IMG/VR virus record: IMGVR_UViG_2880395615_000010
Reading direction: 5' to 3' (one strand)
Source of the DNA: a virus
Lineage: Duplodnaviria; Heunggongvirae; Uroviricota; Caudoviricetes
Length of the DNA: 64,000 nt
Shown piece by piece: positions 14,181 to 61,457 of this stretch. Position 1 is the stretch's first letter. Each line of letters opens with the position of its first letter. The position numbers were made by a program, and so were the translations under genes. The notes beneath the pieces are model-generated. The model did no database searches. It was not told where the DNA came from and saw only the letters and a program-made list of their open reading frames with translations.

Positions 14181-14206
14181 CTCTCGCGCCAGTCTGAGGG
14201 CAAAAT

Positions 14207-14638: not shown

Positions 14639-14651
14639 GTATTACCTCCGT

Positions 14652-15404: not shown

Positions 15405-15411
15405 ATCGTCC

Positions 15412-16379: not shown

Positions 16380-16393
16380 AATTCACCCTGCGT

Positions 16394-16747
16394 TTATCGT
16401 CGCCGGTTAACTGCGGGTGGTTGCCCACGGTTCAGCCAGAGATAACAACTGCCCCCGTCATCCGGAGAAACACGATCCACCCAGAACGTCTCACCATTAA
16501 TGGTCAACGTGTCACCACGCCGCACGGCACGAACCGTATCCGTCCGCACAAATAATGACGGGCTGCTTCCTTCAATACGGATCCCACTACTGGCAAAACC
16601 CAGCGACTCCGGATCGTCAAAAACCCCCTGAACTTCGCCGCCACGCTGTGCACCGGAGGTGAACTGCGCACTGATGCCCATCACTTCAACAATCGTACTG
16701 TCCACCCCGGCAAGGGCGGCATCAAAGGCATTCTGAAAATCACGCAT
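16394..16747 (-). CDS. FII: Head-tail connector protein FII, about 117 aa
   Basis: Lambda FII-like; likely start at MRDFQNAFDAALAG as in copy B. Confidence 0.75.
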   Translation of the reverse strand: MRDFQNAFDAALAGVDSTIVEVMGISAQFTSGAQRGGEVQGVFDDPESLGFASSGIRIEGSSPSLFVRTDTVRAVRRGDTLTINGETFWVDRVSPDDGGSCYLWLNRGQPPAVNRRR

Positions 16748-17162
16748 AAACAGCCATTCCACCATCAACGTGTGTTTTTGCATCTGAGGACATAATCAGA
16801 ATCACCCGACCAACATCCGCAAGCTCAACGGATTCCCCCGTTTCACCATCAACGCCACAGAGATGGAGGCAGGTCAGAACTCTGATGCGCGTTAACGCGC
16901 CGGATGTTTCCTCACGAACATCATGAGCCGCGTTTTCCCTCTCCCGGATATCCATATTCATAACCTGTACATCATCGCCGGATGACTGCATTTCCTCTTC
17001 CCATTCTGCCACCCGCTGCGCTATCTCTGCGGCACTCCCGGATATATCCGGCTCACGCCCCAGAATCAGGGCCAGTTCATCAAGCCGTTTCAGATTTTGC
17101 TCTTTCGTTGCCATATCATCCCCCTGTGAAAAAAGACACGGGGGCATTTCGCCCCCGCTCAC
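16740..17162 (-). CDS. FI: DNA packaging protein FI-like, 140 aa
   Basis: Position between E and FII; C-terminal half differs from copy B. Confidence 0.6.
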   Translation of the reverse strand: MSGGEMPPCLFSQGDDMATKEQNLKRLDELALILGREPDISGSAAEIAQRVAEWEEEMQSSGDDVQVMNMDIRERENAAHDVREETSGALTRIRVLTCLHLCGVDGETGESVELADVGRVILIMSSDAKTHVDGGMAVYA

Positions 17163-30657: not shown

Positions 30658-30699
30658 GGAGTTTACTCACATCTGACAAAATCAATATAAACAGCCCCT

Positions 30700-30722
30700 C
30701 CGGAGAGGGGCTGGAGAGTGGC
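30700..30722 (-). terminator. Hairpin likely terminating the tRNA transcript
   Basis: cagcccctctccggaggggctg followed by a T-rich tract on the minus strand. Confidence 0.4.
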
Positions 30723-30948
30723 GCTATGTGCCATTGCATGGTGCCGGGTGCCTCCCGGTGAATTCAGTACCAGCACCTGAATCCGCGATTATCCCATATA
30801 CCTACTCGCTGATTGCCCCTCCGCACAGGGGGATTCACCATGCCAGTTTCTTTTAACAAACTCCCCGCAAACCAGACAACAGTCAACCGCCTGAATTGTG
30901 AGACATTTAAAAAAAAAGCCCGCAAAAGCGAGCCAGGGAAAATAAGTG

Positions 30949-31025
30949 TGGCGCGTTGTACTGGATTCGAACCAGTGACCGATTGCTTAGAAGGCAATTG
31001 CTCTGTCCGGCTGAGCTAACAACGC
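30949..31025 (-). tRNA. argO: tRNA-Arg (anticodon UCU)
   Basis: Perfect cloverleaf: acceptor gcgttgt/acaacgc, anticodon loop CTTCTAA, T-loop TTCGAAT, encoded CCA. Confidence 0.8.
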
Positions 31026-31038
31026 AGGATACAGATAA

Positions 31039-31116
31039 TGGACCGCCTTCGGGGACCCGAACTCCGCGCAACCAGCTTCGAAAGCTGGCGCTCTTTCCTG
31101 ATGAGCTAATGGCGGT
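31039..31116 (-). tRNA. argN: tRNA-Arg-like (anticodon read as UCG), imperfect stems
   Basis: Perfect anticodon stem ccagc/gctgg with loop TTTCGAA, but one mismatch each in the acceptor and T stems. Confidence 0.5.
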
Positions 31117-31122
31117 ATGTGA

Positions 31123-31198
31123 TGGTGGCCCTTGCTGGATTTGAACCAGCGACCTGGCGATTATGAGTCGCTCGCTCTCACCACTGAGCTAAAGGGCC
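31123..31198 (-). tRNA. ileZ: tRNA-Ile2 (anticodon CAU, ileX/ileZ-like)
   Basis: ggccctttagctcagtggtgagagc...ctCATaa...ggttcaaatccagcaagggccacca, very close to E. coli ileX from memory. Confidence 0.85.
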
Positions 31199-35292: not shown

Positions 35293-35448
35293 TTACTCCT
35301 CAGGTTCGTAAGCTGTGAAGACAGCGACCTCCGTCTGGCCGGTTCGGAGTCGTACCTCGCAGAGGTCTTTCCTCGTTACCAGTGCCGTCACAATGACGGT
35401 TAAACAGATGACGATCAGGGCGATAAGCATCGCCTTTTGCTGCTTCAT
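35293..35448 (-). CDS. hok: Hok/Gef-family type I toxin, 51 aa
   Basis: MKQQKAMLIALIVICLTVIVTALVTRKDLCEVRLRTGQTEVAVFTAYE matches the Hok pattern; SD AAGGAG upstream. Confidence 0.75.
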   Translation of the reverse strand: MKQQKAMLIALIVICLTVIVTALVTRKDLCEVRLRTGQTEVAVFTAYEPEE

Positions 35449-35739
35449 AGCCTGCTTCTCCTTGCCTTTCGGCACGTAAGAGGCTAACCTACGTGTGTAG
35501 AGCATAGATATGGCCTCAGATTAATGTTAAGCGTCTTGCCGGACGCGTAATGTTAACTGGGGCTTTTCTCTATCTGCCTTTTGGTGTTCATGCCTGAGAC
35601 AGATAGCCTCAAGCACCCGCAGCAATTCTACTTAACTCTCCTTTTCCCGCAAACCGTTTTTATCCCCAGCGGCAAATCGAATACACCACCAGCGTCACCG
35701 CCATCGCAATTCCTACCGTTGTGAATGCCTCAGGCCAGG

Positions 35740-36393
35740 TCATTGATTCACCTCCTGCGACAGTTCAGGCAACGCTTCCAGTGATGCTTTCACAAACCAC
35801 GCTGCCTGAACTATAACGCCATGGATCCAACGCAAATCAGCATCGCGATCTTTCTTTTTCATCTTTTCGCTACTTAAAGCCTGGCTTATGTGGCTGCGCA
35901 CCAGGTCTTCATGTAAATCCTTCGCATCCTCAATGGTGAAACCACCAGGCAGAAGAGCCGGAGTTACCGGAGAGCTGGTTGACGCTTCCGGGATTTTCCG
36001 AAAATTATTGGTTGACGAATCTTTATTTTCCCGAAAGTTTCCGGACTGAAGCATGGCTTCGCGGCAATCGTTCCAGCCTGTAGCGTATGCAGCCGCTTTG
36101 CTGCTGCCTTCAACTGGCGCATCCTGCCAATACATTTCTTCCGGCACTATCGGCGCTGGAGGGGCGGCAAATAGATATCCGCCAAAGTCAGGAAGCTCTC
36201 CAATGGCCTGTACGAACTTTTGTTTGCCTACGTCAACTCCTAATGGGTAATGAGCTATAATCTTTGCCACCGGCTCTGCTTCCAGCGATGCCAGCGCAAT
36301 CCGTGCCAGTTCCATTTGTTCACCACGGGTAAGCCCGTTTTCAAGCGGATTTTTAATGAACAATTCAATACGTTCTTTGGTAATAGTGGTCAT
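35740..36393 (-). CDS. Hypothetical phage protein, 217 aa
   Basis: ORF with SD; no recognisable motif. Confidence 0.5.
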   Translation of the reverse strand: MTTITKERIELFIKNPLENGLTRGEQMELARIALASLEAEPVAKIIAHYPLGVDVGKQKFVQAIGELPDFGGYLFAAPPAPIVPEEMYWQDAPVEGSSKAAAYATGWNDCREAMLQSGNFRENKDSSTNNFRKIPEASTSSPVTPALLPGGFTIEDAKDLHEDLVRSHISQALSSEKMKKKDRDADLRWIHGVIVQAAWFVKASLEALPELSQEVNQ

Positions 36394-36403
36394 GTGTTAC
36401 TCC

Positions 36404-36667
36404 TTAACCCGCAGTGCTTTCAACTGATGAGGGGAACAAAATCTTTTCATCAAACCCTGCATTCATATCATGAACAGCAACACACCAATCCATCGACGAA
36501 CGATTATCAAGAGCCTCCATGATTTCATCCATGCGGCGTAGGTCATACAGGTAAATGCTTTTATCGCCAATGGTGTAAAAGCCAATTTTTTTCGGTGATG
36601 GACAGCGATCAAGAACTTCCTGTAATTCGTTCAACCATGCCCGTTCTTTTTTTGTCAAAGTTGCCAT
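36404..36667 (-). CDS. Hypothetical phage protein, about 87 aa
   Basis: Start assumed at MATLTKKERAWLNELQ overlapping the upstream stop (ATGA). Confidence 0.4.
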   Translation of the reverse strand: MATLTKKERAWLNELQEVLDRCPSPKKIGFYTIGDKSIYLYDLRRMDEIMEALDNRSSMDWCVAVHDMNAGFDEKILFPSSVESTAG

Positions 36668-36668
36668 A

Positions 36669-36887
36669 TCAGTTTTCCTTATACGGATTAATTTTATTGT
36701 GCAGTGTGTTGAACGACGCCCATACAACGTCGGTATACAATTCAGTAACTGGCTCAATTATTTTCCCGATTGCCCAGACAAAAATTAGAGGGGATATCGG
36801 TATCATCAATACGATAAACAGAATGAGAAACCAAAATTCTGTCGCCCTACTTTTTTGCGGATATTCTTTTCTGAATAATGTAGTCAT
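36669..36887 (-). CDS. Small membrane protein, 72 aa
   Basis: One long hydrophobic segment FWFLILFIVLMIPISPLIFVWAIG. Confidence 0.4.
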   Translation of the reverse strand: MTTLFRKEYPQKSRATEFWFLILFIVLMIPISPLIFVWAIGKIIEPVTELYTDVVWASFNTLHNKINPYKEN

Positions 36888-37236
36888 TTCTTACCGCCCT
36901 TTCGGGCGGCCTCCCGACATTAATCGTTGTGGTAACTCATGGCTTCATTTGCAGCATCAACCGGATCAACCTCCCACCAGCAATAATTTGGTGCGTTTCC
37001 TTCAGGTGTCCACGGTTCTAATTCATTTTTTGCCACATTCTCGTCGCCAGTAATTTTAAAAATCTGCTCAGAGAATTTTTCACCCACTCGTTATATTTTT
37101 CAGTGTTAATAATTTTCTGTGTATTTGACATAGATATACCTCCAGTTAAGGATTAAATTTTATTTACAGTGCTGAACTTAATTATTCAGATTTGGATTAT
37201 GCTTTCTCTTCACGAAGTTCCGATTGTTAATTTGGC

Positions 37237-37659
37237 TCACAACAGCACCTTCTGAAAATTACCCTGATAGAAAGCCAGTACACGCTGCATAGCTTCGCTC
37301 TTCCGGCACTCGCTACAGATTATGTTTTGACGCCTGTCGTAGCGGCGTATTTCTCCGTCTGGTAATGACCAGATAAGGTCAGGATCAACCACAGATGGTT
37401 TCTTCAGATTTGCCCTTGAGAGTTTTTTGCGGGCGTTTTGCCAGTCCTTACGCGCCTGTTCAGACGGGAACAACCCGTAACCAGAGTTGTATACATCGCC
37501 GCTGGCAACCAGCTCTCTTGCGAGAACGCTCATCAGATATCTTGTCGCACCTGTCTTGACTTCCAGTTGCCGTAACGTCTCACGCCCACTCTGGCGTACG
37601 AGTTCAACAACCTGCCCTTTAATTTTTTCTCGCTCTTCTTGTGTAAAAACTTTTGCCAC
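37237..37659 (-). CDS. Hypothetical protein, 140 aa
   Basis: ORF immediately downstream of the replication initiator; CxxC at C-terminus. Confidence 0.45.
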   Translation of the reverse strand: MAKVFTQEEREKIKGQVVELVRQSGRETLRQLEVKTGATRYLMSVLARELVASGDVYNSGYGLFPSEQARKDWQNARKKLSRANLKKPSVVDPDLIWSLPDGEIRRYDRRQNIICSECRKSEAMQRVLAFYQGNFQKVLL

Positions 37660-37699
37660 AAGTCCTCCTGAAAATTACCTCATGACCAGAAATCAACAC

Positions 37700-38776
37700 T
37701 TACCCCCTGAAGCCCAGTGGAATTTCGGTATCTGGTTCAGAAATGTGATTCACGCAACGCTGGTTGTTCGTACCGCTTACCGGGAGCAACCAGGGGTTCT
37801 CAAAATTCCGGTCCGGTCCTAAAAACGTCGTCGCTCGCTGAACAAATTCCGTTCCCGTTTTCCCGGTAGCCGCCAAGTATCTTGCGTAACGCCTCACGCC
37901 ATCCAGCATGGCCTCTGGTGGCACCCCCTCGCGTAATCTGGCCTTCCAGGCACTGAAAGCGGATTTCTTCGGGTTTGCTCCGGCACGCAACGGGTACTCC
38001 CGCCAGACCTGTTCGAACACATCCGGATAATCCACTCGTCCCACAGACTGCCCGGTGTTTTCCGGGACTACCCGATCGGCTTCCCGCAGAATGGCGGAAT
38101 CGGCTTCAGGCTGCTGCAGTTGGTGTGATTGCTCCGGCCTTGCGGTCATCACCTGCTGCACAGCGCCCGAATCGGCTTTCAGCGCATACGCTGAATCGGC
38201 TTCCGGTGTCGTGCCTGCTGGCTGACCAAGATTGACGGTCTGAACATCCCCTGCCTGGTTCGTGGCGTTTTTTACGCCATGGACCATAGTGTTTTGATCT
38301 TCTTGATCTGTATCTTTATCTGTATCTTTATCTGTCGTTACTCGTCGTGACATGTGCGTGACATTTCGTGACGCGCCGTGACAATCGCCATTTTGTTCCC
38401 GCTTTCTTTCCCTCTCTCGCTGCGCCCTCTTGCGCTCTGCAGGAGATTTTGCGGTTTGCGAAATATTGCCGTTGTCCTCTTTAAGCACCTGGCGTTTTTC
38501 CCATCCAGTGATTAAATCACCATCAAGTACCCGCCCCTGCATCGTCTGCAAAATTGAATCAATTACCTCTTCTGTCACGTCGAGCGCACTTGCCAAATCT
38601 TCTGTCGTGACATCAATGTGACCTCGCGTGACATTTCGTGACGCGCTCACCAGGAGGTGGATATACACTGCCATCACTGTTGCAATTGGCTGCCCTGACA
38701 CCCTGGCAATTGTTCGCCACTTAGGGTCATTTGGCATGTCATGCCATAATCTGAGCCAAGCGTTAGCCATACTCAC
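37700..38776 (-). CDS. Replication initiator/organiser protein (lambda O-like role), 358 aa
   Basis: Position after the cro-like/YdaT-like genes; internal iteron clusters; conserved C-terminal region (VFEQVWREYPLRAGANPKKSAF...). Confidence 0.65.
   Translation of the reverse strand: MSMANAWLRLWHDMPNDPKWRTIARVSGQPIATVMAVYIHLLVSASRNVTRGHIDVTTEDLASALDVTEEVIDSILQTMQGRVLDGDLITGWEKRQVLKEDNGNISQTAKSPAERKRAQRERERKREQNGDCHGASRNVTHMSRRVTTDKDTDKDTDQEDQNTMVHGVKNATNQAGDVQTVNLGQPAGTTPEADSAYALKADSGAVQQVMTARPEQSHQLQQPEADSAILREADRVVPENTGQSVGRVDYPDVFEQVWREYPLRAGANPKKSAFSAWKARLREGVPPEAMLDGVRRYARYLAATGKTGTEFVQRATTFLGPDRNFENPWLLPVSGTNNQRCVNHISEPDTEIPLGFRG
38346..38382. repeat. Iteron cluster 1: four CGTGAC repeats at 10-11 bp spacing
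   Basis: cgtgac at 38346, 38357, 38367, 38377. Confidence 0.55.
38609..38645. repeat. Iteron cluster 2: four (C)GTGAC repeats at 10-11 bp spacing
   Basis: gtgac at 38609, 38620, 38630, 38640; 21-mer gcgtgacatttcgtgacgcgc identical to cluster 1. Confidence 0.55.
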
Positions 38777-38841
38777 CTCTTCTGATACCGAATCTTTTTA
38801 CTCACGAGTTGCCGGAAGCGATTCGATATGGCTATTGTCAG

Positions 38842-39267
38842 TCAATGTACTGCCACAGCATTTCCTGCCGGGCCACCACGGTTCATCTGATTGAAACCGG
38901 CGATTGCCACTGCGACAAAATCATCAGCGTCTCTCACCAATCGCTCCCGCGTCTCCACCAGCTCCCGAAAATAAGCTGAACTGTGGCTGCGCATTCTGGC
39001 CACCAGCAAAGGTGGCATTGCCTTTTCGATCGCTGGTAACAACGCCTGAATTTTTTCAACTGCATCAGGGGTGTCTTTCTCTACCCAGCGGAAAATTTTC
39101 TGGGTATTGCGAGCCAGGGCTTCCGGATGGCTGTCGTCATACAGTTCAGGAAACGTCATACCCAACTCAAAATAAGCCTGGGTTATTCCAGCTGCTGGAA
39201 CTTTTTCGCCATCAGGACGCGCCCAGGCATTCATCGCCATGCGGATGTGTTCATGCTTGATTTTCAT
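38842..39267 (-). CDS. ydaT: YdaT-like protein, 141 aa
   Basis: N-terminus MKIKHEHI matches my recollection of K-12 YdaT; overlaps the upstream HTH gene. Confidence 0.6.
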   Translation of the reverse strand: MKIKHEHIRMAMNAWARPDGEKVPAAGITQAYFELGMTFPELYDDSHPEALARNTQKIFRWVEKDTPDAVEKIQALLPAIEKAMPPLLVARMRSHSSAYFRELVETRERLVRDADDFVAVAIAGFNQMNRGGPAGNAVAVH

Positions 39268-39532
39268 GAATCAAGCTCCTAGTAAGTGGTTGTGTTAACG
39301 TTTTGGTATCTTCCAGCTCGGGCCAAATATTCATCCAATCAAAAGGCCTTAGTTGCTGACGTGTAACTTCACCATTACTGGCTCGCTCAATAAGGACACA
39401 TAACGATGCCCCTAAGATTTGACCTTTACTCAATGCCTTTCTTAGATAACCGATGCTAGTACCACACTCACATGCAAACATACGCTGTTCATCTGACGAA
39501 AGAGAATTGAGAAATATTCTTAATTCTTCCAT
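39251..39532 (-). CDS. Cro/YdaS-like HTH regulator, 93 aa
   Basis: HTH segment CGTSIGYLRKALS; divergent from the repressor-like gene. Confidence 0.6.
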   Translation of the reverse strand: MEELRIFLNSLSSDEQRMFACECGTSIGYLRKALSKGQILGASLCVLIERASNGEVTRQQLRPFDWMNIWPELEDTKTLTQPLTRSLIHENQA

Positions 39533-39632
39533 AGCTACTCCTTAGTAAACACAGCAAAGAATACCCACAGGTAAACAAAAGTCAATACCCCTAGGTTGTT
39601 TACCTTGCGGTAATCGCATCTATTATTTACCT
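39533..39632. promoter_or_regulatory. Divergent promoter/operator region of the immunity switch
   Basis: Inverted repeat ggtaaacaa...ttgtttacc plus repeated TTACC motifs between divergent HTH genes. Confidence 0.45.
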
Positions 39633-40052
39633 ATGGACAAATATGAATTTAGACGACAACAACTCATCAAAATTCGTGATGAGAAATGCGATGGTAAAGC
39701 GGTTAACGTGGCCAGAAAGATCGGTCGCGAGCCTTCTTATGTATCAAGAATGTTGTACCCAGAGGGGAAAAAAGGAAAAAAACGGATCGCTGATGATATG
39801 GTGGAGATTATAGAAGAGTCCTTTGGGTTACCCCGGGGATGGATGGATGGTATCGTTTCATCATCAACGAACACAGCCTCCAATTATGAAACAAGGGTTC
39901 TAACGCCACGACAACGTATTTTTTTAGATCTCTTAGACGAACTGCCAGAAAGTGAAGCGGATAACTTATTAAAAACTCTTGAAGAGAAAAAACAGTATTA
40001 CAATATGATCTACGAAGAAATCCGTAAAAAGAAAGCACAAAACGCATCATAA
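39633..40052 (+). CDS. Prophage repressor-like HTH protein without a peptidase domain, 139 aa
   Basis: HTH KAVNVARKIGREPSYVSRML; no Ser/Lys dyad region. Confidence 0.55.
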   Translation: MDKYEFRRQQLIKIRDEKCDGKAVNVARKIGREPSYVSRMLYPEGKKGKKRIADDMVEIIEESFGLPRGWMDGIVSSSTNTASNYETRVLTPRQRIFLDLLDELPESEADNLLKTLEEKKQYYNMIYEEIRKKKAQNAS

Positions 40053-40096
40053 CTCACCAAACAACCAGTCACCAGTTAAGACACATCAAAAAAAAT

Positions 40097-49901: not shown

Positions 49902-50501
49902 TCAGAACTTATAACCGACACCCACGATGAAACCGTCAGTGCGCCAGTCGCCACTGCCGGAGCCTTCATAAGCGACATCAACGGCCACTGATTCGGTCGG
50001 GTTAAACTGCACGCCAGCCCCCCACGCCAGAGATGTGTTGCTGTAGCGAGCGTCATCACTTCCGGTCAGCACGTCGTGCGTTTTCCTCTTGTTGTCAGTT
50101 ACGCGAAGATAATCCCCGGAGAAAGTCGACACACGGCTGTAAGCCATACCCGCCATCGCATACGCGCTGAACCATTCATTCACGCGCACAGACGGCCCCG
50201 CCATCACGCTGAACCAGCGGTTACGCACGGAATCTTCATGCCAGCGGATATCGCTGTAACGGGTCAGCTGGCGATTCTTGTCTCCTGCATAGCTGAATGA
50301 CGTCACCAGCCCCAGTGTGTCCGTAAACTCATAACGGTATTTCACGTTAATCCCGTTCAGATCATCGCTGCCGGGAACGTTCGTCGAGGCATGAAGATAC
50401 CCCGCGCTCAGCGTGGACTGATGTTCAGATGCCCATGCAGGCGCACCGGATACAGCCAGACAAATGGCTGCGGAAAAAATGGCGGCATAAAGTTTACGCA
50501 T
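49902..50501 (-). CDS. lom: Lom-family outer membrane protein (copy B)
   Basis: Near-identical to the copy A lom. Confidence 0.85.
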   Translation of the reverse strand: MRKLYAAIFSAAICLAVSGAPAWASEHQSTLSAGYLHASTNVPGSDDLNGINVKYRYEFTDTLGLVTSFSYAGDKNRQLTRYSDIRWHEDSVRNRWFSVMAGPSVRVNEWFSAYAMAGMAYSRVSTFSGDYLRVTDNKRKTHDVLTGSDDARYSNTSLAWGAGVQFNPTESVAVDVAYEGSGSGDWRTDGFIVGVGYKF

Positions 50502-50568
50502 AATTACCTCTCGCTTTTCTGCAATAAAAAAGGCGCCATTTCTGGCGCCCGTATATGGGTTATAAAAT

Positions 50569-53500
50569 TCAGCTGATACTGATGCCTGCTGTGGATTTTT
50601 TCATCACCACAACCAGCAGATCGCTGATACTTGCTGTGGGATACCAGTTATTTACCAGCCATGCTGACACCGAAAACTCCAGCGTCATGTGACCGTGACC
50701 GGCAGGCATATCAATAACGCCACTGTAAATCAGCGTATTATCCAGCGCGGTACGGTTATAAATTTCAGCACCGTTTTTCCGCACTATCAGACGGCATGAG
50801 GAGTAAATATCAGTATGCTCTCTCTCATGTTTAGCGCCGCTGAATGCCACCGCCGGAATAACAATTTGCCGGTCAAACGGCTGATCGTCATAAACCCTGA
50901 CGGTAATGGTCCCTGATGGCCACCGCTCCGGTGCACGGGAATCCCGGGGGAAAGCTTTGCCCACTGTTTTAACGAGATCGCCTTCAATCTGGTTCGCGGA
51001 CAGTTTTCCCAGAACCCGACAGTTCTCGTTAATCGTGACGTTGTTGAGCGTCCCGGAATTCGCATTCACGTTACCGCTGATATCAGCATTTCTTGCGGTC
51101 AGACTGCCCTCCGGCGTCAGGGAAAACGTCGGGGGATTGCCGGACGAGGTGATACTCACCGCAAACAGCCGCTTCAGGAACACATCGTTCATGAACAACT
51201 GATTCCCCTGCGCCACAAATAACGGCGTGGTGTTGCCGTCCTCCGGGTTAATCATCGCAATACGGTCAGCCAGCAGCAGTATGTTGCTCAGGGGCTGGCC
51301 ATCAGTATCCTCAATCCCCGCTCCAATACCGGCAACATAGGGAATGCCGTCTTTCGTTTTTTGAACCTTCAGCATGTACAGCGCAGCCAGGTCATCATTT
51401 GTGTCCTTCTGCACGCGCTGTATCTGCTGTATGGTGGCGCTCTGGTCTTCCAGCGTTTTACTGACCGTCTGTGTGATTTCATTGCGGGTTTCGGTGATGG
51501 TGGTCTTCATCTCCGCCATCTCATCCGCAAGCTGGCTGTTGTCTATCAGCTCCCACAGCCCCTGAGCCAGATGCAGTTTTCCTATTTTTTCCCGGAAAAA
51601 TTCCAGATACCCTTCACCATCATTGCTGGGCTGCCCGCTGATTTCCACAAACGCAGATTTCCCCACCAGGTTGACGCTGCGCACGTAAAACCAGAAATCC
51701 TTCCCGGGCTTAATGTGCGGGCCGGATACACTCCACTGACTGCCGGTCCCCAGATAACGGGCAGAGGTTTCCACCTGAGATATGTCTGCGATTTTTGTCT
51801 CCGAAAACCAGAACTCAAACTGTACCGTCGGGTCATACACCGCAAGACGCGGGACCGCTGTTATCTGAAAATAGCCCGGTGTCAGCTCAATCTGTGACGG
51901 CGCTGCCGGTGCGGCAATCCGGAACGATACCGACGCCGGATCGCCCTGCTGCCCCCACGCATTTACCGCCCGGACTGTCAGCCTGTAGTTCCCCGGCGCC
52001 AGTTGCGTGAAGCGGTATGTGGTTTCCGTCGTCCGGGCCGTGCTGACCAGCCGCTCACTGCCGTCATCCGCGACCACGGTCAGGCGAAGCATAAAGCTCA
52101 CGCCCTTCACCACCTTCGGCGTGTCCCATTTCGCCTGTGCCAGATACTGACCGTCAGCCGCGCTCACCTCCACCGTCAGGTGCTGCACTGCCGGTGGAAT
52201 AACGCTGTTCAGGGTGCCTGACTGCGGCTCAAAGCTGGCCCCGTTATCCACGATGGCTTCTTTTTCCGGTACGTGCTGCACCGCCGTGATGGCAAAGGTG
52301 CCGTCCGTGTTTTCCCGGATGGAGACACAGCGGAACAGGCGACGACGCAGTGACGGCAGGGAGAGTCCCCATACACCGTATGTCTCCACACCATCAGGCA
52401 GGGTGCTGACCTGTATCCGGTCCGGCGCGGGGTGTGCAGTGATGGCCACGCTCACCGGCTTACCGCTGCCGTTAATCAGGTTCACCGTGGCGGCACCTGT
52501 CTCCGGCAGGGTCACCTCACGGTCCAGTGTCAGGGTGCGGCTGGCGGCATCGATGGACAGGATACGTCCGCCGGTCATGGTCCCGGCATAGTCGTTATCA
52601 CAGATTTCAATAATGTCACCGGGTGTGTGACGCAGCCCCTGTGACCCGAGCGTGAAATCCACCGTCTGCGTTTCCAGCAGTCCGGTCTTTATCACCCACA
52701 GCCCGGCACGGTGGGCCTGACCGCGACTGGTGCAACCGAACGCATCCATCTTCAGCAGGTTGCGCCCGTAGCGCAGTATGGCTTCCGGGTCTTCCACCAG
52801 TTCCGTGGAGGTCTGCCAGCCGTTCTGCGGGTCGGTGTAATTCACCTCCACCGCCGTGTGGCGGTCCTTCAGGGCGCTGAAGCTGTAGCGAAACCCCACG
52901 CCGTTATCATCCACCACCACATCGCAGTTGGTGTACGGCCACACCACATCCGACGGGCGGTCCTGAACGAACGTCAGCGTCTGGCCGTTCCATACCGGCA
53001 TACAGCGCATCGCCGAGCAGAAATCACTGAGCACATCCCATGCCTTACGCTGTTGTGACAGGTACGCATTAAAGGTCATCCGCGGCTCGGTCCCCCCGAA
53101 ACCATCCGGCACCGTCTGGTCGCAGTACTGCGCAATGGCATACAGCGCCCATTTGTCCACGTCTGCCGCCCCCAGACGTTTTCCCATGCCGTAGCGCTGG
53201 TGAGTCAGCATGTCCCACAGGCACCAGGCCGGGTTATTGCTGTATGCCGGTTTCAGGCTGCCGTCCCAGATACCGCTGTAAGTGCGTTTTTCCGGGTCAT
53301 AGTTTGACGGTACCTGAATGATGCGACCGCGGATATGGTAGTTCACCGTCATCTGCTGGCCACCAAACTGCTCCGCATCCACCTGCAGCCCCACAATCGC
53401 CGTGTTCGGGTAGCACTGTTTCACATCGATGATTTCGGTGTATGACGACCAGAGCGTCTTATTCTGCAGCTGGTCCGGGGTGCTGTCCGCTGTCTCCCGG

Positions 53501-54045
53501 ACCATCCGGATGTTAAAGGGCCGGGGAGGCAGATTATCCAGAATCACCGACGCCAGGTACTGTGAGGTGGTCTTGCCGTTAATGGTGACATCCTTTTCCG
53601 TCACCCAGTTACCGTTACGCTGCAACTGAATCAGCAGTCGGACAGAAGAGGGATTACGGTCGCCCTTTGAGGTGGTCTCCAACAGTGACTGCACCCCGAA
53701 GGTGACCCGCAGGCGGTCAATGTTCGCGGATGTAATGGTGCGCGTCACCGGCTTTGCCTTCGTCACTTCCACGCCCAGTGCGGTTTCAGCTCCGGAGGAC
53801 TCAAAGCCTTCAGGTGGTGTCTGCTCCTGCTCCCCGGCGCGCCAGACCGCTGTCACACCATGTATCACAGGATTACCGTCCGTGTCCGTCAGCGGGGTTT
53901 TGTTCACCAGGATACTCTGCAACCCCTTCACCGGACCTTCAATCGGCCCTTCACCAATGGCATCAATCACGCTCATCATCTGCGTGGACTTAAGATTGTC
54001 CTTTGCCTCAACCGGCGTGTGCGCCCTGCCTCCACCTTTACCCAT
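50569..54045 (-). CDS. J: Tail tip host-specificity protein J (copy B), 1158 aa
   Basis: Co-linear with copy A J but the last about 130 aa differ. Confidence 0.9.
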
Positions 54046-54178
54046 AATGTTCCTCTCAATTGGTATTATTAATCGCAGTGATAGGATATTGCACAGCTAT
54101 TGCGCGATATCATCAGAACGCTGTTTGTTACCCTGTAACCAGCAAGCTCAGTCTGTTAACGGAATTAATGAGGGTTTT

Positions 54179-54706
54179 ATGAAATGTAAAATCATTGCTG
54201 CCATTGCCATGCTGACAGCAGCATCATGCGGATACGCAGCAGAACAGGAAGTCCCAATGAACCTTGTCAGTGCTGACGGAAAAGAAGTCAGCATTGGAAA
54301 AATAACCATTCAGGAGACCCCCTACGGTCTGCTGTTCACACCAGCCCTTCACTCTCTGTCTGAAGGCATTCATGGTTTTCATGTGCACGAAAAAGGAAAT
54401 TGCGCCCCGGCACTGAAAGACGGAAAACCGGTCGCAGCATTATCGGCTGGCGGTCACTTTGACCCGAAAAACACCGGCAAACATCTTGGCCCCTGGTCTC
54501 CGGATGGACACCTGGGCGACCTCCCTGCGCTGTTCGTGACGCATGACGGAAAAGCGAACTACCCGGTCCTGGCCCCGAGACTGAACTCATTAAAAGAGAT
54601 TAAAGGGCGTTCTCTCATGCTTCATGCTGGCGGTGATAACCATCATGACCATCCGGAGCCCCTGGGCGGTGGTGGTGCGAGAATGGCCTGCGGCATCATT
54701 CAATAA
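54179..54706 (+). CDS. sodC: Periplasmic Cu,Zn superoxide dismutase SodC, 175 aa
   Basis: Signal peptide then [11 protein letters not shown]...GGHFDP...GDLP...[12 protein letters not shown] motifs; SD GAGGG; only in copy B. Confidence 0.85.
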
Positions 54707-54713
54707 TCAGTCA

Positions 54714-54742
54714 GGTAAGGGGCGGGCCCCTTACCTTTATTC
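54714..54742 (+). terminator. Intrinsic terminator after sodC
   Basis: ggtaaggggcgggccccttacc followed by tttatt. Confidence 0.55.
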
Positions 54743-54896
54743 CTCAGGACGATAAATCCTTTCTCCCTGAAAAGAACGGCACATCCTCCCTCTCTGAGTT
54801 AATGTTTTTGTCGTGACATAAGAATAATTCCTTACACTCAATCTTCGTAACGCTCCCGCAGTTCCTGTCCGTGAGCACTGCGGGATTTTTTCGCTT

Positions 54897-55577
54897 TTAT
54901 GCCTGCCGCCCGATAACCACCACCTTCCCGCCCCCGCCTTCATCACGGGTGCTGATGTCCTGGGAGATTCGCCGGGAGCCAACCAGCATTTCACCGTAAG
55001 GCACCGGCATCGGGTTCCCCTGGGCAATCATGTTATCCAGCGACGAAAAGTACGTGTTCTGTTTACCGTTATCCGTTGCCCTGTATTCCGGTGTTTTTGG
55101 CTTCGGGGCAAGCATCTGAGCCACACCACCCAGTATCATGCTGGCACCCAGTGAAAACAGCATCGTGGTGGCAGAAAAACCGCCGGCACTCAGCGCTGCA
55201 CCCCAGGCTGCCATCGATGCTCCGGCCGTGAAGAAAGAGCCCACGATGGCTGCCGCCCCCAGCACAATCTGCAGTCCACCCTTTCCGGCCCCGGCCAGTC
55301 GCGGCACAATATGGATGACCGCCCCCTCACCCAGCTGTTCGTGAAGACGGGCGTACACCGCCTCCGGTGCCGTGTCCTCACCGCGAATACGTATCTGGTA
55401 CCAGCCTTCGTTCATCTGACGGCGGAATCCCGGCATCTGCATCGACAGGGCACGGATGGCTTCCGCTGCCGTGTTCACATACAGGCTGAGGCGGCGGCCA
55501 AATCGTTGCAAATCCCCGTGAAGGCAGATGCGTGCCAGTGGCGGTGACGCCAGAGGGAGTGTGTGCGTCGCTGCCAT
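54897..55577 (-). CDS. I: Tail assembly protein I (copy B)
   Basis: Homologous to 8844-9515. Confidence 0.8.
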   Translation of the reverse strand: MAATHTLPLASPPLARICLHGDLQRFGRRLSLYVNTAAEAIRALSMQMPGFRRQMNEGWYQIRIRGEDTAPEAVYARLHEQLGEGAVIHIVPRLAGAGKGGLQIVLGAAAIVGSFFTAGASMAAWGAALSAGGFSATTMLFSLGASMILGGVAQMLAPKPKTPEYRATDNGKQNTYFSSLDNMIAQGNPMPVPYGEMLVGSRRISQDISTRDEGGGGKVVVIGRQA

Positions 55578-56218
55578 TTATCGGTATACCTCTCTCGTTT
55601 GCTCAGTTGTTCAGGAATATGGTGCAGCAGCTCGCCGTCACCACAGTAAATGGCGGCATGATTCGGCACCGATGAACCAAAACAGCACAGCAGCACATCG
55701 CCCGGTTGTGCTGATGACAACGGCACCTGATACAGCCCTGTGGCCTCCAGATTATCCAGATAGAGATTCTGACCGTGACGCCACCAGTCATCCCCGCGAT
55801 GAAAATCCGGCATCTCAATCCCCGCCAGATGATAAGCATCCCGGAACAGCGTGTAACAGTCCGTCACCCCGTGCTCAAAGCGCCGTCCTGTCAGATGTGG
55901 CACACAGCGGAATTTATGAATTTCCCCCCGGCAGACCAGCCACCAGAACAGTGCACTTTTTATCTGCAGCCGCCGGTCGGCCTCGCTCAGCCAGGGCAGA
56001 CCACCGGGATGACTGTGGACCAGTGCCACAATCTCCCCCTGCATCTCTGCCCGCAGCCAGTCTTCCGGTGCGATACGAAAATACGCCTCCGGCTCTGCAG
56101 AGATATTCACACAAGGGATATACCGTTCCCCCTCCGGCGTGCTTATCACGAAGCCGCACGACTCCGCAGGCGCACACCGCCGGGCATGCGCCAGAATCGC
56201 TGATTCAGTCTGTGTCAT
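55475..56218 (-). CDS. K: Tail assembly protein K (copy B)
   Basis: Start at MTQTESAILAHARRC as in copy A; the ORF-track N-terminal extension is probably not translated. Confidence 0.75.
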   Translation of the reverse strand: MTQTESAILAHARRCAPAESCGFVISTPEGERYIPCVNISAEPEAYFRIAPEDWLRAEMQGEIVALVHSHPGGLPWLSEADRRLQIKSALFWWLVCRGEIHKFRCVPHLTGRRFEHGVTDCYTLFRDAYHLAGIEMPDFHRGDDWWRHGQNLYLDNLEATGLYQVPLSSAQPGDVLLCCFGSSVPNHAAIYCGDGELLHHIPEQLSKRERYTDKWQRRTHSLWRHRHWHASAFTGICNDLAAASACM

Positions 56219-56228
56219 AAAACAGGAT

Positions 56229-56927
56229 TTACTGCGAAAGTTTATTGATGGAAAGGAAACCGCCAAAATTGACCGCCATGCCGCGCATCTCACACCCGCG
56301 CATGCATTTACTGCATCTGTCCTTCCGGATATCCGTGGTGGGGTTGTCGAACTCATCCGCCACTGCCGGACCGTTATACCCGCATTCATCGCCCCGGTAA
56401 TCCCACATACAGGTGTTCGCCAGCATGATGCGACCGGGAAACAGCGCCCCGTCCGTCTCCGTCGGTGTCGCCAGCACAAACGAGGCCGTCATGGCCGTCA
56501 GCGATGACATCTGCTCCACCACCCACCGGTCCGTCAGCTCCTGCTCAGGGTCTGCCTCAGGATTGCCTGCCACAAAATTCACCGCATCCAGAAAACGGGC
56601 ATACACCCGGCGGCGGACCACCGTGGCCCCCACCAGGCTCTGCAAATCCTCCGCCATCCCGGTGACAAGGCCGAAAAGATTGGACACCGTCAGCGACGGG
56701 CGGGCACTGCTGCCCTTTCCGTTCATCTCAAAGCCGCTGCCCTCAATCGGGTACGCCTGATATTCACGCCCCTGCCAGGTCACCGCCTCCCCTTTTTCAT
56801 TCAGCTCATTGCAGAAAAAATACCGCTCACCACCCTGTACCGTCAGGTCGATTTCCCAGAGTACCACCCGCGGTGACTGCTCTGATTTAACCGACTCGTT
56901 CAGACTTTCTTCGTGAATATCCTGCAT
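56229..56927 (-). CDS. L: Minor tail protein L (copy B)
   Basis: Homologous to copy A. Confidence 0.85.
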   Translation of the reverse strand: MQDIHEESLNESVKSEQSPRVVLWEIDLTVQGGERYFFCNELNEKGEAVTWQGREYQAYPIEGSGFEMNGKGSSARPSLTVSNLFGLVTGMAEDLQSLVGATVVRRRVYARFLDAVNFVAGNPEADPEQELTDRWVVEQMSSLTAMTASFVLATPTETDGALFPGRIMLANTCMWDYRGDECGYNGPAVADEFDNPTTDIRKDRCSKCMRGCEMRGMAVNFGGFLSINKLSQ

Positions 56928-57256
56928 CAGTTCACCACCTGCTTAAACTCGGCACTGAATTCAACCCGCAGCATGCGAACCCGTGATGACCAGGCGGCAC
57001 AGGTCACCTTTATCTGCCGCCAGGCATAAGGCGGTGTCCACAGAAACGCCTTCCAGCCACCGTGCTCTGCCAGGAATGCCTCCAGATGTCGGGCCTCCTC
57101 CCGGGTCACGGAAAGCGTCACACGGTATGTTTTCAGGTCAGCATTCAGCCCCGCCGCCATACGCTGCGAATACCCGTCACCAAAACGCACTTCACGCACC
57201 GATGGCTGCGAGTTCACCTCCATATCCGGCTTCACTTTCCAGCGAAATGTTTTCAT
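56927..57256 (-). CDS. M: Minor tail protein M (copy B)
   Basis: Homologous to copy A. Confidence 0.85.
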   Translation of the reverse strand: MKTFRWKVKPDMEVNSQPSVREVRFGDGYSQRMAAGLNADLKTYRVTLSVTREEARHLEAFLAEHGGWKAFLWTPPYAWRQIKVTCAAWSSRVRMLRVEFSAEFKQVVN

Positions 57257-59832
57257 CGCCTGCCTCCGGAAAAGACGCCGCCATCACGCATCTGCGCCTG
57301 AATCTCATCCTGCGCCCCCTTGCGGGCCATGTCATACACCGCCTTCATCAGCTGCGGCCCCGCCTGTCCGTTGGAGCCGTCGTTCTGAATCACCACGTGA
57401 TTGTTCTGATTAAAATTAATGCCTTCCGTCCGCCGCATCTGCGCCGGACTTCCGGCACCGCCCACATAACCACCTTCCGCATAGCCCCGCATCAGGCGGT
57501 ACAGGTTGCCGACGCCAATCCGGCTGGTTGCCTCCTTCGTGAAGACAAACTCCCCGCGATGAACAATCCCCGCAGGCTCATATTTGCCGCCCGTCCCCGT
57601 AAATCCCCCGGTCGCGAAATGGAAGTTCGCCGCCGCAGCCTGAATGGCCGTCCCCGTGGAGGCAGACGCCCCACCACCGAAAGCACCACCAATGGCGCTG
57701 CCGATACTCCCGACAATCCCCACCATTGCCTGCTTAAGCAGAATTTCTGTCATCATGGACAGCACGGAGCGGGTGAAGCTGCGCCAGTTCTGTTCACTGC
57801 CGGTCAGCATCACCGCCATATTCTGTGCAATACCGTCAAAGGTCTGCGTGGCCACGCTTTTAACCTGCGAAAAACTGTCCGTCGCACTTTCCGCCCACTC
57901 GCCCCAGCCGGACTTCAGCCCGGCCATCCAGCTTCCACGAAGCTGCTCCTCCGCAGACCAGGTGTTCTTCAGTGCCGATGTGGCCTTCGCCAGCGCAGCC
58001 GGATTATCACCGTACACGTCACGAAGGCGCTGCTCTTCCGACTCCCGCTGCGCCTGACGGTCGGTGAGGCCCCGCGCCTGGGCACTGATTGCCGCCTGCT
58101 TCGCACTCTGCTGCTGTTCAAACCGCGCCGCCTGCTGTGCCAGCTCATTCAGCCGTTTCTGGTGTTCAACTTTGTCTCCCAGCTCAGCCAGCTGGCGTTT
58201 GTACTCCAGCGTCTCTTTCTCATGGGTCAGCAGGGATTTTTCCTGCTCAGATAACTGCCGTTTCGTGGCTGCCTCTTTCAGGACCGCATACTGATTTTCC
58301 GCTTTCCATAAATCGCGACGCTGCTGGCTGATTTTCTCATTCGCACCGCTGTGTTTTTCCAGCGTCCGGAGCTCGGTTTCAAGCGCCAGCAGGGCAGCAT
58401 GCGCCTGGTCTTCCTGACGCTCACCGGCTGACACTTTGACTCCTGACGACTTCGGCTTTTTCAGCGTCGATTCATAATCCTTTTTCGCCGCCGCCATCAG
58501 CGTGTTGTAATCCGCCTGCAGGATTTTCCCGTCTTTCAGGGCCTTATTCAGTTCTTCCTGACGGGCGGTATATTTCTCCAGCGGCGTCAGCAGACGCTCA
58601 TACGCCTTCTGCGCCTCTCCGGTATACTTCAGCTGTGATGCGTCCCGTTCGGCCCGGTCCCTGGCGGCCAGTTCACCGGCTTTTTCCATATCCGACTGCA
58701 GCGTGGCCGCTGCCAGCCCCAGACGGGCATTTTCCCGGTCATTCCATGCGCCCTGAAGGTTGGCCCGGAAAGAGGCGGTTTTTCCCCGGCGCTGGCTCCG
58801 GCTCTGGTACCACTGCCATTTTTTATCTGCCTCATCAAATGCCTTCTGTGCACTGGCGAGCATATCCGCTGAGGACTCAGGACGACCGATATCCAGAATG
58901 GCATCCCACATCGATTTGAATGCCTTCCCTGTTTTATCCGCCCAGGTCTCCAGTGTTCCCATGTTTTCTTTCAGGCGACGGGTCTGCTCATCAAAGCCTT
59001 TCGTGGCGATATCGTTCGCCGCCTGCAATGCCCCGGCCTCGTCTCCGGAACGCTGCAGCTGTGCAACATACGCAATCTGCTCTGCCGTCACGTTACGGAA
59101 CTGGCGCGCCATCGCCATCAGTCCCGACGTCGGGTCGGTGGTCAGTTTTCCGAAAGCCTCTGCCACCTTGTCCACCTCCACACCGGATGCAGAAGCAAAA
59201 CGCGCGACACTCTGGTTGATGGCATCAAACTGTTCACCACCACGCACACCGGCATTCACCAGGGCTGCCAGTGACTCACTCGCCTGGTTAAACGTCAGCC
59301 CTGCGGCCTGTCCGGCTCTGGAGAGCGTCAGCATGCGATCGGCAGTCAGTCCGGACTGATTACCGGAAAGAACCAGGGTTTTATTAAACGCTGAAAGCGT
59401 GGAATCCCCCTGGTACCAGGCGTACGCCAGCGCACCTGTCGCCACCGCCAGCGAGGTGACCCCGACCATCGGCAGGGTGATCGCACCGGCAAGTCCCCTG
59501 AACATGGGGATCATCCCGCCGAAGGAGTCCTTCACCTGACCGCCCTGTTGCAGCAGGATCAGCCAGGGATTCTGACCACCGGCAAGCTGCGTGGCGATAT
59601 CCGTAAACTGTGCGGGCAGGGTTCGCATGGCCGCTTTATACTGCCCGACGGAAATCCCGGCTTTTTGTGCAGCCAGCGCCTGACGACTCAGGTTCTGCTC
59701 AACAACACCGGCGGTTTTTCTGGCGTCAGTCTCCAGTCCGGAAAAATGACGCCTTACCCGGCTCATCTGCTCATCGAAACGGACCGCATCCAGACTCAGG
59801 TCAATAACAAGATCACCAACCGGCTGGGACAT
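57253..59832 (-). CDS. H: Tail tape measure protein H (copy B), 859 aa
   Basis: Homologous to copy A. Confidence 0.9.
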   Translation of the reverse strand: MSQPVGDLVIDLSLDAVRFDEQMSRVRRHFSGLETDARKTAGVVEQNLSRQALAAQKAGISVGQYKAAMRTLPAQFTDIATQLAGGQNPWLILLQQGGQVKDSFGGMIPMFRGLAGAITLPMVGVTSLAVATGALAYAWYQGDSTLSAFNKTLVLSGNQSGLTADRMLTLSRAGQAAGLTFNQASESLAALVNAGVRGGEQFDAINQSVARFASASGVEVDKVAEAFGKLTTDPTSGLMAMARQFRNVTAEQIAYVAQLQRSGDEAGALQAANDIATKGFDEQTRRLKENMGTLETWADKTGKAFKSMWDAILDIGRPESSADMLASAQKAFDEADKKWQWYQSRSQRRGKTASFRANLQGAWNDRENARLGLAAATLQSDMEKAGELAARDRAERDASQLKYTGEAQKAYERLLTPLEKYTARQEELNKALKDGKILQADYNTLMAAAKKDYESTLKKPKSSGVKVSAGERQEDQAHAALLALETELRTLEKHSGANEKISQQRRDLWKAENQYAVLKEAATKRQLSEQEKSLLTHEKETLEYKRQLAELGDKVEHQKRLNELAQQAARFEQQQSAKQAAISAQARGLTDRQAQRESEEQRLRDVYGDNPAALAKATSALKNTWSAEEQLRGSWMAGLKSGWGEWAESATDSFSQVKSVATQTFDGIAQNMAVMLTGSEQNWRSFTRSVLSMMTEILLKQAMVGIVGSIGSAIGGAFGGGASASTGTAIQAAAANFHFATGGFTGTGGKYEPAGIVHRGEFVFTKEATSRIGVGNLYRLMRGYAEGGYVGGAGSPAQMRRTEGINFNQNNHVVIQNDGSNGQAGPQLMKAVYDMARKGAQDEIQAQMRDGGVFSGGRR

Positions 59833-60226
59833 ATCTCACACCTCCGGAAATCCCCGCTGAAGCCATCATTAATGCGACATCATCCTCGCTGACATCCGCC
59901 ACATCCGCAGACGATAAAATCTCACGCCCTCCGTCCCCACCAAACCGGACGCCTCCGGCAAGTCCTGCCGCTTTCTGCATCAGCATTTTTTCCTCATCCG
60001 GCATCTCCGTCTGCGCTTCCTCACGCCGGGGGGCAAGCAGACTGAAATCAGAGGGATGCATATCCGGATCGCAAAAAAACAGGCTGAGTACGGCGTACGT
60101 CAGCCCGGAAAAATGCATATCCAGTTGGGTATCGAGAAAATAATGCGTACGGTAAAAATGTCGCCAGTCGGCATATTCGGTGGATGTCATCCCGGCAAGC
60201 ATGGCGCGCCAGTCAGGCCTCCCCAT
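59813..60226 (-). CDS. T: Tail assembly chaperone T frame (copy B)
   Basis: Homologous to copy A; slippery ctttccc at 60271-60277. Confidence 0.7.
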   Translation of the reverse strand: MGRPDWRAMLAGMTSTEYADWRHFYRTHYFLDTQLDMHFSGLTYAVLSLFFCDPDMHPSDFSLLAPRREEAQTEMPDEEKMLMQKAAGLAGGVRFGGDGGREILSSADVADVSEDDVALMMASAGISGGVRYVPAGW

Positions 60227-60252
60227 CTCACGCGCCAGTCTGAGGGCAAAAT

Positions 60253-60684
60253 TCAGCTCGCCGTCGAAGACTTTCCCGCAGAAAAATCATCATCAGTCAG
60301 CGCGTTATTTTTCGCCACTTCGGTGCTGTCAGTATCCGCATGAACAGCCCCGCTCATCCCGGACAGACGCAACACCACATCTTCCGCCCGGGCAATGGCA
60401 TCCGCAGGCCAGGTGGTGAGCACCTCCTGTTCGATCTGCATCACAGCCTCATTCATTGACGGTGATGCCGTTTTCTGCGGATGGTTATGCCACAGGGACA
60501 TCGCCACCAGAAACGCGCCGGTTCTGACGAGATCTTCCACGCTTACCTGCAGGTTGCCGCTGGATTCTGCCTGTTCTGCACGCCGTTTCAGGAGGGCAAG
60601 ATGCTCAATACGCTGCAGCGCAGACAATTCGGAAAGCGTGACGGACACACCGTTATATTCAAATTGTTCTGTTTTCAGAAACAT
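60253..60684 (-). CDS. G: Tail assembly chaperone G (copy B)
   Basis: Homologous to copy A. Confidence 0.8.
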   Translation of the reverse strand: MFLKTEQFEYNGVSVTLSELSALQRIEHLALLKRRAEQAESSGNLQVSVEDLVRTGAFLVAMSLWHNHPQKTASPSMNEAVMQIEQEVLTTWPADAIARAEDVVLRLSGMSGAVHADTDSTEVAKNNALTDDDFSAGKSSTAS

Positions 60685-60697
60685 GTATTACCTCCGT

Positions 60698-61450
60698 TTA
60701 CCCTGCAGCGCCCGCTTCAGTAACGGTGACTTCAGCCACTGCGGCGAACTGACCATTTCCGCTCACCACAGGGATCTGCACCTTACCTGTCGCCACGCCG
60801 TTTACCGTAATTGTCATATCTTTCACACTAATGGTGGCTTTCGACGGATCGGCGGAAACCGCTCTGAACGTCTTGTCGGTTGCACTTTCCGGCTCAAAAG
60901 AAACCGTCAGGGTGGTTGTTTTCCCTTTTGCCACCGTACCGGATGTCGGCGTCACCTTAATCGCAGTGACCGGCGTAATTTTGCTGCGTTCTTCCGCCAC
61001 GGAAGGTTTGCCCACGTTGGTCACTTTCACCGTGCGGGTGATCACTTCTTTCGCCGTCACGGCCTTACCGATACTGCTGACCCAGCCACGAAACACATCC
61101 ACCGTGCCGTTCGGAAAACGGATTTTATAGGCCCGCACATCCCCGCTTTCAAACCAGCCTATAAGCCCTTTCTGACCTTCTTCTCCCGGTTTCCAGGCCA
61201 GCGTAAAACTGGTATCTCCTGCAGACTTCTGCCCCTGCCCGGTCGCGGTCCAGTCCGCGTCTTCATCATCCAGGTAGTTATCATCGTAGGGTTCTGCCGT
61301 CATCTCGCCCGGCGTCAGATCCTTCACCTTAGCCAGTCGCAGCCAGTCATCGTCTGACAACGGGTTTGCATAGGCGTCACCCTGACCGTTATAAACCCAC
61401 AGGGTGGTACCGGCACCTTTTACCGGCGCCAGGGGATTTGGTGTTGCCAT
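60698..61450 (-). CDS. V: Major tail protein V (copy B)
   Basis: Homologous to copy A. Confidence 0.85.
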
Positions 61451-61457
61451 ATCGTCC

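Follow-up and report, generated by a model that had tools for sequence, protein, structure and literature searches.

A SodC-F1 cassette read antisense to the tail operon between genes I and J of a lambdoid prophage, and its relation to an EcOnc22-family small RNA slot

The stretch of DNA analysed here (IMG/VR record IMGVR_UViG_2880395615_000010, Caudoviricetes; 64,000 nucleotides, hereafter the window) carries a gene for a Cu,Zn superoxide dismutase (SOD), sodC, between two tail genes of a lambdoid prophage. Two such prophages, the first termed prophage A and the second prophage B, make up the window, and both carry their tail modules on the minus strand. In prophage B the interval between the tail assembly gene I and the tail tip or host-specificity gene J (54046-54896, 851 bp) has a single plus-strand open reading frame (ORF), which is sodC. 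It is highly probable that this interval carries a self-contained sodC moron, read opposite to the late tail operon: the traits of a moron seen here are its location between genes that are adjacent in related phages, a terminator of its own, a lower GC content than that of the neighboring genes and its opposite orientation. The cassette is already known, annotated and experimentally characterised, and the gene itself offers no new biology; the only additions made here are a corrected account of the anatomy and boundaries of the interval and its link to the slot of the EcOnc22-family small RNAs (sRNAs).

The catalytic residues of the product are all in place. It scores 111.9 bits on the Pfam Sod_Cu domain (PF00080), whose gathering threshold is 28.9 (E 3.9e-32), over positions 3-133 of the 133 in the profile, and solved bacterial SodC structures in the PDB match it at E ~1e-62. 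Alignment with human SOD1 equates the Cu ligands H68, H70, H93 and H149 with H46, H48, H63 and H120, and the Zn ligands H93, H102, H111 and D114 with H63, H71, H80 and D83; the Cu-ligand histidines are likewise kept in comparison with 1z9n and 2wwn. The seven metal-ligand residues, six histidines and one aspartate, are thus intact, among them the ligand histidines on whose presence the initial annotation had made the identification depend. The catalytic arginine R168 and the disulfide cysteine C171 align directly with R143 and C146 of human SOD1, and C75, in a HVHEKGNC motif, occupies the site equivalent to C57, at which BLAST displaced the gap. Compared with a diverged allele from strain cM8a, which occupies the same slot and shares 80.6% protein identity, the ratio of nonsynonymous to synonymous substitution rates (dN/dS) is 0.13, indicating that sodC is under purifying selection. 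As far as sequence can tell, these features support the identification of the ORF as a bona fide Cu,Zn SOD.

By inspection, the N-terminus comprises MKCK, a hydrophobic stretch, an AASC lipobox (with the cysteine at position 17) and GYA|A, with a signal peptidase I (SpI) site between A20 and A21. The signal is of the dual type, open to both SpI and signal peptidase II (SpII), so that a portion of the protein is anchored in the membrane as a lipoprotein; hence the initial proposal of a periplasmic SodC holds as regards export, and the enzyme is not purely a soluble periplasmic one.

All 851 nucleotides of the interval recur unchanged between I and J in prophage Sp10 of Escherichia coli O157:H7 Sakai, and the product is identical to ECs_1989 of that strain over 175 of 175 residues. 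Moreover, 1301 bp around sodC are 100% identical to O55:H7 CB9615, where RefSeq annotates sodC with gpJ on one side and a tail assembly gene on the other. The two O157:H7 alleles sodC-F1 and sodC-F2, from prophages CP-933R and CP-933V of EDL933, were studied by D'Orazio et al. (2008, PMC2569942), and differ at nucleotide 335, where T encodes leucine and C proline. The window gene has T at this position, encoding Leu112, and is therefore the F1 allele. The same work, which includes LipoP analysis and fractionation, described SodC-F1 as having a mature form of 155 amino acids, an SpI site that separates residues 20 and 21, and an AASC lipobox whose cleavage leaves Cys17 as the N-terminal residue (PMC2569942); the length of the mature form, the SpI site, the lipobox and Leu112 of the window ORF all agree with this. 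Between the O157:H7 enzyme encoded in Sp10 and the window cassette, the leader, position and orientation are the same, and the cassette shows no difference at all.

Thus, what has been established for the SodC-F1 protein applies to a protein identical to that of the window. Its specific activity was 19380 U/mg against 6290 U/mg for the chromosomal SodC; it is a dimer resistant to proteinase K and ethylenediaminetetraacetic acid (EDTA), and it was recovered both in the soluble periplasmic fraction and in the detergent fraction that holds lipid-anchored proteins (PMC2569942). It accumulates in log phase and under anaerobic conditions, the tagged protein accumulates in uninduced cultures, its abundance rises relative to that of SodC inside Caco-2 cells, and deletion mutants are more sensitive to H2O2 (PMC2569942). 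The chromosomal enzyme, by comparison, is monomeric, roughly 3-fold less active, sensitive to proteases and EDTA, and rpoS-dependent, with expression restricted to stationary phase (PMC2569942). The role in oxidative stress that the initial annotation had held plausible is hence borne out for the identical O157:H7 protein, which is active, exported and contributes to H2O2 resistance (PMC2569942).

These observations also bear on the possibility that sodC is a decaying or silent passenger, akin to a pseudogene and devoid of function in this strain. Degraded elements do occur around prophage B, in that the tail fibre gene of its CB9615 counterpart is annotated as frameshifted and the sRNA gene next to sodC has lost its promoter (see below). 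However, an intact ORF with every catalytic residue present, a dN/dS of 0.13 and publication of the identical protein as expressed and active (PMC2569942) make such decay very improbable.

The cassette also carries expression signals of its own. A Shine-Dalgarno sequence, GAGGG (54170-54174), lies 4 nucleotides ahead of the ATG of sodC. Further upstream, a block of 32 nucleotides (54097-54128) is identical in the cM8a cassette despite a synonymous divergence (dS) of 0.90 between the coding sequences, which makes it the best candidate for the control region of sodC. Given this conservation and the lack of a consensus sigma-70 promoter in the scan described below, the block is likely to be a regulator site. 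A PhoP-box-like element, TGTTTGTTACCCTGTAA, picked out by eye upstream of sodC, was rejected on account of its second half-site, which is a poor one and lacks conservation in cM8a. On the other side of the gene, an intrinsic terminator starts 6 nucleotides past the stop codon (-17.9 kcal/mol, z -2.8). The initial annotation had described a plus-strand sodC running antisense to the tail operon, with a Shine-Dalgarno sequence, a signal peptide and a strong terminator of its own, and each of these elements can be located; its block 54046-54900 spans the whole interval rather than the ORF, which is confined to 54179-54706. A second plus-strand terminator stands closer to gene I, and at neither of the two is there a T-run on the minus strand, so that late tail transcription, proceeding from I into J, should be able to pass.

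Taken together, these features suggest the following mode of action. In the lysogen the late operon would be silent, and sodC would be transcribed on its own. The precursor is exported and processed along two routes: either SpI cleaves it behind residue 20, or Cys17 receives a lipid and SpII does the cutting. The outcome is soluble periplasmic and membrane-anchored pools of a dimeric Cu,Zn SOD. Such an enzyme removes superoxide that forms beyond the cytoplasm, with host cells as one source, and supplements the weaker, monomeric and rpoS-dependent chromosomal SodC. The two plus-strand terminators would keep sodC transcription from entering gene I in the antisense direction, and in lytic growth Q-antiterminated late transcription would still reach J. 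Phage-borne SodC is a textbook case of lysogenic conversion, by which prophages protect pathogens against superoxide derived from the host.

Several points nonetheless weigh against the reading as a self-contained moron. We know of no demonstration that the E. coli enzyme has a role in animal virulence. A scan of the region upstream of sodC recovered no consensus sigma-70 promoter; the best match under relaxed settings is TTGGTA-16-TAGGAT (54060-54087), with 8 of 12 positions. Accordingly, the case for an autonomous promoter consists of the 32-nucleotide block and a published lacZ reporter fusion with 299 bp of upstream sequence, for which rpoS-independent expression of sodC-F was reported as data not shown (PMC2569942). 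The TTTATT tract of the sodC terminator is imperfect, and some read-through is possible. Lastly, in the H2O2 assays the effects of deleting the chromosomal and phage copies were not additive (PMC2569942).

The comparison with prophage A shows how the interval departs from its surroundings. In BLAST comparisons of the two halves of the window, 48207-54045 of B is 83.8% identical to 2942-8783 of A, and 54907-62765 of B is 84.9% identical to 8848-16760 of A; the tail modules are collinear, and the I-J interval is the sole break in the alignment. On the J side of B the product has five Pfam GpJ domains (E 1e-38 to 1e-41), and its counterpart in CB9615 carries the gpJ annotation; on the other side, the CB9615 counterpart of I is annotated as a tail assembly protein. 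The GC content of the interval is 49.6%, against 57.4% in J and 61.1% in I, and the GC content at third codon positions is 0.51, against 0.69 and 0.67. The 17 bp adjoining the start codon of J include its ribosome-binding motif (54049-54059), and a similar J-proximal stretch (CCCATAAT..TCCCTCTGAA) lies beside the J start of the Salmonella phage Fels-1. In prophage A, 60 bp (8784-8843) separate the two genes and contain a single hairpin (plus strand, -12 kcal/mol; minus strand, -16.2 kcal/mol), in keeping with the spacer of about 60 bp and one hairpin reported initially. A tblastn search recovered no second SodC-like sequence in the window, and the statement that sodC stands between J and I in prophage B only is upheld by this and by the contrast between the 851-bp interval and the 60-bp spacer.

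The boundaries of the cassette are another matter. The initial annotation had envisaged defining them by aligning 8784-8843 with 54046-54896, and this failed, as only scattered chance matches appear; with DNA only ~84% alike, alignment to the A spacer is unable to define insertion boundaries, and prophage A is the wrong reference for that purpose. The cassette ends show no transposon-like signatures beyond short direct and inverted repeats of the kind expected by chance. The closest flanks to those of prophage B (95-97% identity) are found in BP-4795, phage 2851 and many Stx1 and Stx2 phages, and their sodC-less spacers are ~240-260 bp long, not 60 bp, with an I-J gap of about 240 bp in BP-4795, 2851 and Sakai Sp15. 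The I-proximal 106 bp of the interval in B align with the spacers of EC31, O111 FWSEC0005, BP-4795, phage 2851 and Sakai Sp15. This homology starts with TCTCTGAG at 54791 and runs through the second plus-strand terminator (stem 54854-54862 / 54877-54885, followed by ATTTTTT; -16.1 kcal/mol); the homologous transcribed region in B ends in a CCCGCAG...CTGCGGGATTTTTT terminator beside the stop codon of I.

In the sodC-less spacer of EC31 a near-consensus promoter, TTCACA-16-TATAAT (11 of 12 positions), precedes this module, and together with the terminator it predicts a plus-strand RNA of ~95 nucleotides. In the window cassette the position of the -10 element reads ATCCTCC, as against TATAAT, AATAAT or TATCAT in six other aligned spacers, and ~50 bp with the -35 region of the sRNA promoter, present in cM8a, are missing from 54737-54790 in the alignment. 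With the -10 replaced and the -35 region absent, 54791-54896 is a remnant rather than a complete sRNA gene. The alignments thus indicate that the cassette takes the place of the J-proximal portion of a ~240-bp spacer, truncating the sRNA gene, and is not a simple insertion into a spacer of the A type. The partly displaced sRNA gene accounts for the 190 bp and the second terminator that follow sodC. The initial view of an insertion therefore stands as a presence/absence difference from copy A, but gives way to partial replacement of an sRNA spacer once the closest sodC-less phages are taken as the reference.

Of 5426 complete E. coli genomes, 1860 carry the module, with 4975 occurrences in all, and no annotation of the module itself was found in the records inspected. 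Tree et al. (2014, PMC4104026, Table S2) listed peaks from crosslinking and analysis of cDNA (CRAC) with Hfq in Sakai, namely EcOnc22 in Sp15, EcOnc23 in Sp14 and EcOnc24 in Sp11, and these map within the I-J spacers of the respective prophages, in antisense orientation relative to the tail genes. As their coordinates refer to an older Sakai record, the shift needed to place EcOnc22-24 was calibrated: AgvB1 gave about +140 bp, and for the HnrS pair of Sp10 and Sp12 the summed shift was 275 bp, i.e. ~+135 bp at 2.23 Mb. With this shift the three peaks would fall on the body of the module just upstream of its terminator. For the Sp15, Sp14 and Sp11 copies, a northern band of ~85 nucleotides that is destabilised in the absence of Hfq was also reported (PMC4104026), and a 2021 review lists the function of EcOnc22/23/24 as 'unknown'. 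The stretch 54791-54896 shares with these copies its place beside the stop codon of I and its strand; unlike them it has neither the -10 nor the -35 region, and its body belongs to the EC31/O111 subtype, not to that of Sp15. Rfam gave no significant match in the B interval or in the sodC-less spacers, and the sRNA module shows no covariation, RNAalifold returning the invariant terminator stem alone. HnrS (EcOnc10-12) was rejected as the identity of the spacer sRNA, since its copies are located after the lysis genes, as were EcOnc35, EcOnc51 and EcOnc54, all of which are located elsewhere.

The spacers of BP-4795, 2851 and Sakai Sp15 have some features of their own. A variable number of TGTCTGA heptamer repeats follows right after the start codon of J, which appears to be GTG in these phages, and after the repeats comes a hairpin resembling a terminator on the strand of the tail operon. 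Separately, a locus-tag number is skipped between I and sodC both in Sakai (ECs_1988) and in CB9615 (RS12455, between RS12450 and RS12460). This may reflect a withdrawn small ORF in the 190-bp stretch (Sakai 1963484-1963673), now read as the sRNA remnant.

Given the retained body, the cassette might conceivably be a bifunctional unit, in which read-through from sodC or processing of its transcript releases 54791-54896 as an Hfq-binding sRNA of the EcOnc22 family derived from the 3' untranslated region (UTR), so that one cassette would supply both an enzyme and a regulator. The remnant keeps the full transcribed part and the terminator of a module that elsewhere has the near-consensus promoter and coincides with the CRAC peaks and the northern band. 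It is also retained unchanged in more than 540 genomes, and the T-tract of the first terminator is imperfect. However, the near-identity of the cassette copies reflects recent spread and not selection, the first hairpin is strong, the promoter elements are gone, and Tree et al. (PMC4104026) list no Hfq peak in the I-J interval of Sp10, consistent with a promoter-less remnant. On this evidence a bifunctional unit is unlikely. If it were nonetheless true, oxidative defence would be coupled to post-transcriptional control. A stretch of 19 nucleotides with 84% complementarity between sodC codons ~30-36 and the loop of the second terminator was dismissed as a chance match, as it is not conserved in cM8a.

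A broader proposal, which is comparably doubtful, is that the I-J spacer of lambdoid prophages serves as a cargo slot, occupied by default by an Hfq-dependent sRNA gene that was never annotated and that about one third of complete E. coli genomes contain. The sodC cassette of enterohaemorrhagic E. coli (EHEC) would have been built into it, knocking out the sRNA promoter, such that sodC and the sRNA are alternative cargo, or the sRNA body now acts as a regulator derived from the 3' UTR of sodC. The common EHEC cassette has the promoter-less remnant, and the rare cM8a type combines sodC with an intact sRNA promoter and gene. The self-contained sodC moron remains the preferred reading, and the modest value added to it is anatomical, in that the cassette occupies a recurrent cargo slot and displaces part of an sRNA gene.

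Among the 5426 complete E. coli genomes, 546 have the cassette-specific segment at full length and 544 have the cassette together with both flanks, indicating that it practically always lies between I and J. The hosts listed are mostly O157:H7, O55:H7, O145:H28, O111 and O103, and further strains, listed with no serotype, come from animals, food and sewage. In the phage collection an identical SodC protein is encoded by two Stx2a phages. Phage Stx2_EH1846 carries the same sodC in a differing backbone, its J being ~81% identical to that of prophage B at the protein level. The diverged allele of strain cM8a (NZ_CM176589.1) lies in the I-J slot with the intact sRNA promoter and gene downstream, and cassettes in its identity range were found in only ~six records.

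Among related enzymes, SodCIII of the Salmonella phage Fels-1 (STM0924) is a Cu,Zn SOD that shares the ligands of the window SodC and has 60% protein identity to it, and its gene lies in the I-J slot in the same antisense orientation as in B. Its junctions differ, however, with a lambda-like hairpin beside J, 53 bp past the stop codon and no sRNA module, which suggests separate capture events in Fels-1 and E. coli or extensive reshuffling of the slot. For this reason the I-J slot seems to have received cargo on more than one occasion. SodCI of the Salmonella phage Gifsy-2 (STM1044; 59% identity), the model for a virulence role of phage-borne SodC enzymes, is dimeric, protease-resistant and likewise encoded antisense within a tail cluster, but its gene lies between M/Lom-like genes and L rather than between I and J. 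The chromosomal E. coli enzyme SodC (b1646) shares the fold, the ligands and the exported location, and its measured 60% identity to the window SodC is consistent with the 61% published for the mature proteins (PMC2569942). In a sample of one genome per species, SodC relatives are only 47-69% identical, and tblastn recovered no I or J homologues within ~5 kb of them; thus, this sample points neither to additional phage contexts nor to an obvious donor.

Table 1. Features of the I-J interval of prophage B and of the corresponding region of prophage A (window coordinates)
Feature	Position	Strand	Remarks
J of prophage B, tail tip / host-specificity gene	50569-54045	-	1158-amino-acid ORF; left flank of the interval
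J translation initiation region	54046-54062	-	minus strand: TTGAGAGGAAC-ATT-ATG
sodC upstream region, candidate promoter location	54063-54178	+	32-nucleotide conserved block and Shine-Dalgarno GAGGG
sodC, Cu,Zn SOD precursor, SodC-F1 allele (Leu112)	54179-54706	+	ATG at 54179 to stop at 54706, 175 amino acids
sodC intrinsic terminator	54713-54736	+	10-bp stem, 6 GC pairs, then TTTATT
Cassette spacer past the sodC terminator	54737-54790	+	homologous to the post-terminator stretch of cM8a
Promoter-less EcOnc22-family sRNA body and terminator	54791-54896	+	106 bp, aligned with sodC-less I-J spacers
I of prophage B, tail assembly gene	54897-55577	-	Pfam Lambda_tail_I, E 3.8e-16; right flank of the interval
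J of prophage A	5301-8783	-	flank of the 60-bp spacer
I-J spacer of prophage A	8784-8843		60 bp, one hairpin, without cargo
I of prophage A	8844-9515	-	flank of the 60-bp spacer

The wider setting of the interval is that of two prophages in tandem, with a junction at ~45696 (1-45695 versus 45696-64000). An integrase gene (44633-45658) closes prophage A, and O55:H7 DEC5B shares 36000-45771 with 100% identity. Beyond the junction, starting at 45696, the match is to the prophage that follows yodB in CB9615, with 98.8-100% identity along prophage B; in that strain flagellar and core genes occupy the place of prophage A, which is not found there. The A/B junction was recovered in no complete E. coli genome of the collection. 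In prophage A, matches at the Rfam gathering score comprise the STnc100 sRNA (30683-30872), three consecutive tRNA genes (30952-31198), the sok antitoxin RNA (35443-35618), which implies a hok/sok module, and DicF (41196-41247). Prophage B has type III effector genes beside its tail fibre genes (46181-48127), as annotated in CB9615. These are espJ and a TccP-like gene with EspF repeats, the internal repeats of which are offset by ~140 bp (47483-48105), and both effectors belong to the backbone of prophage B, as they do in O55:H7 CB9615.

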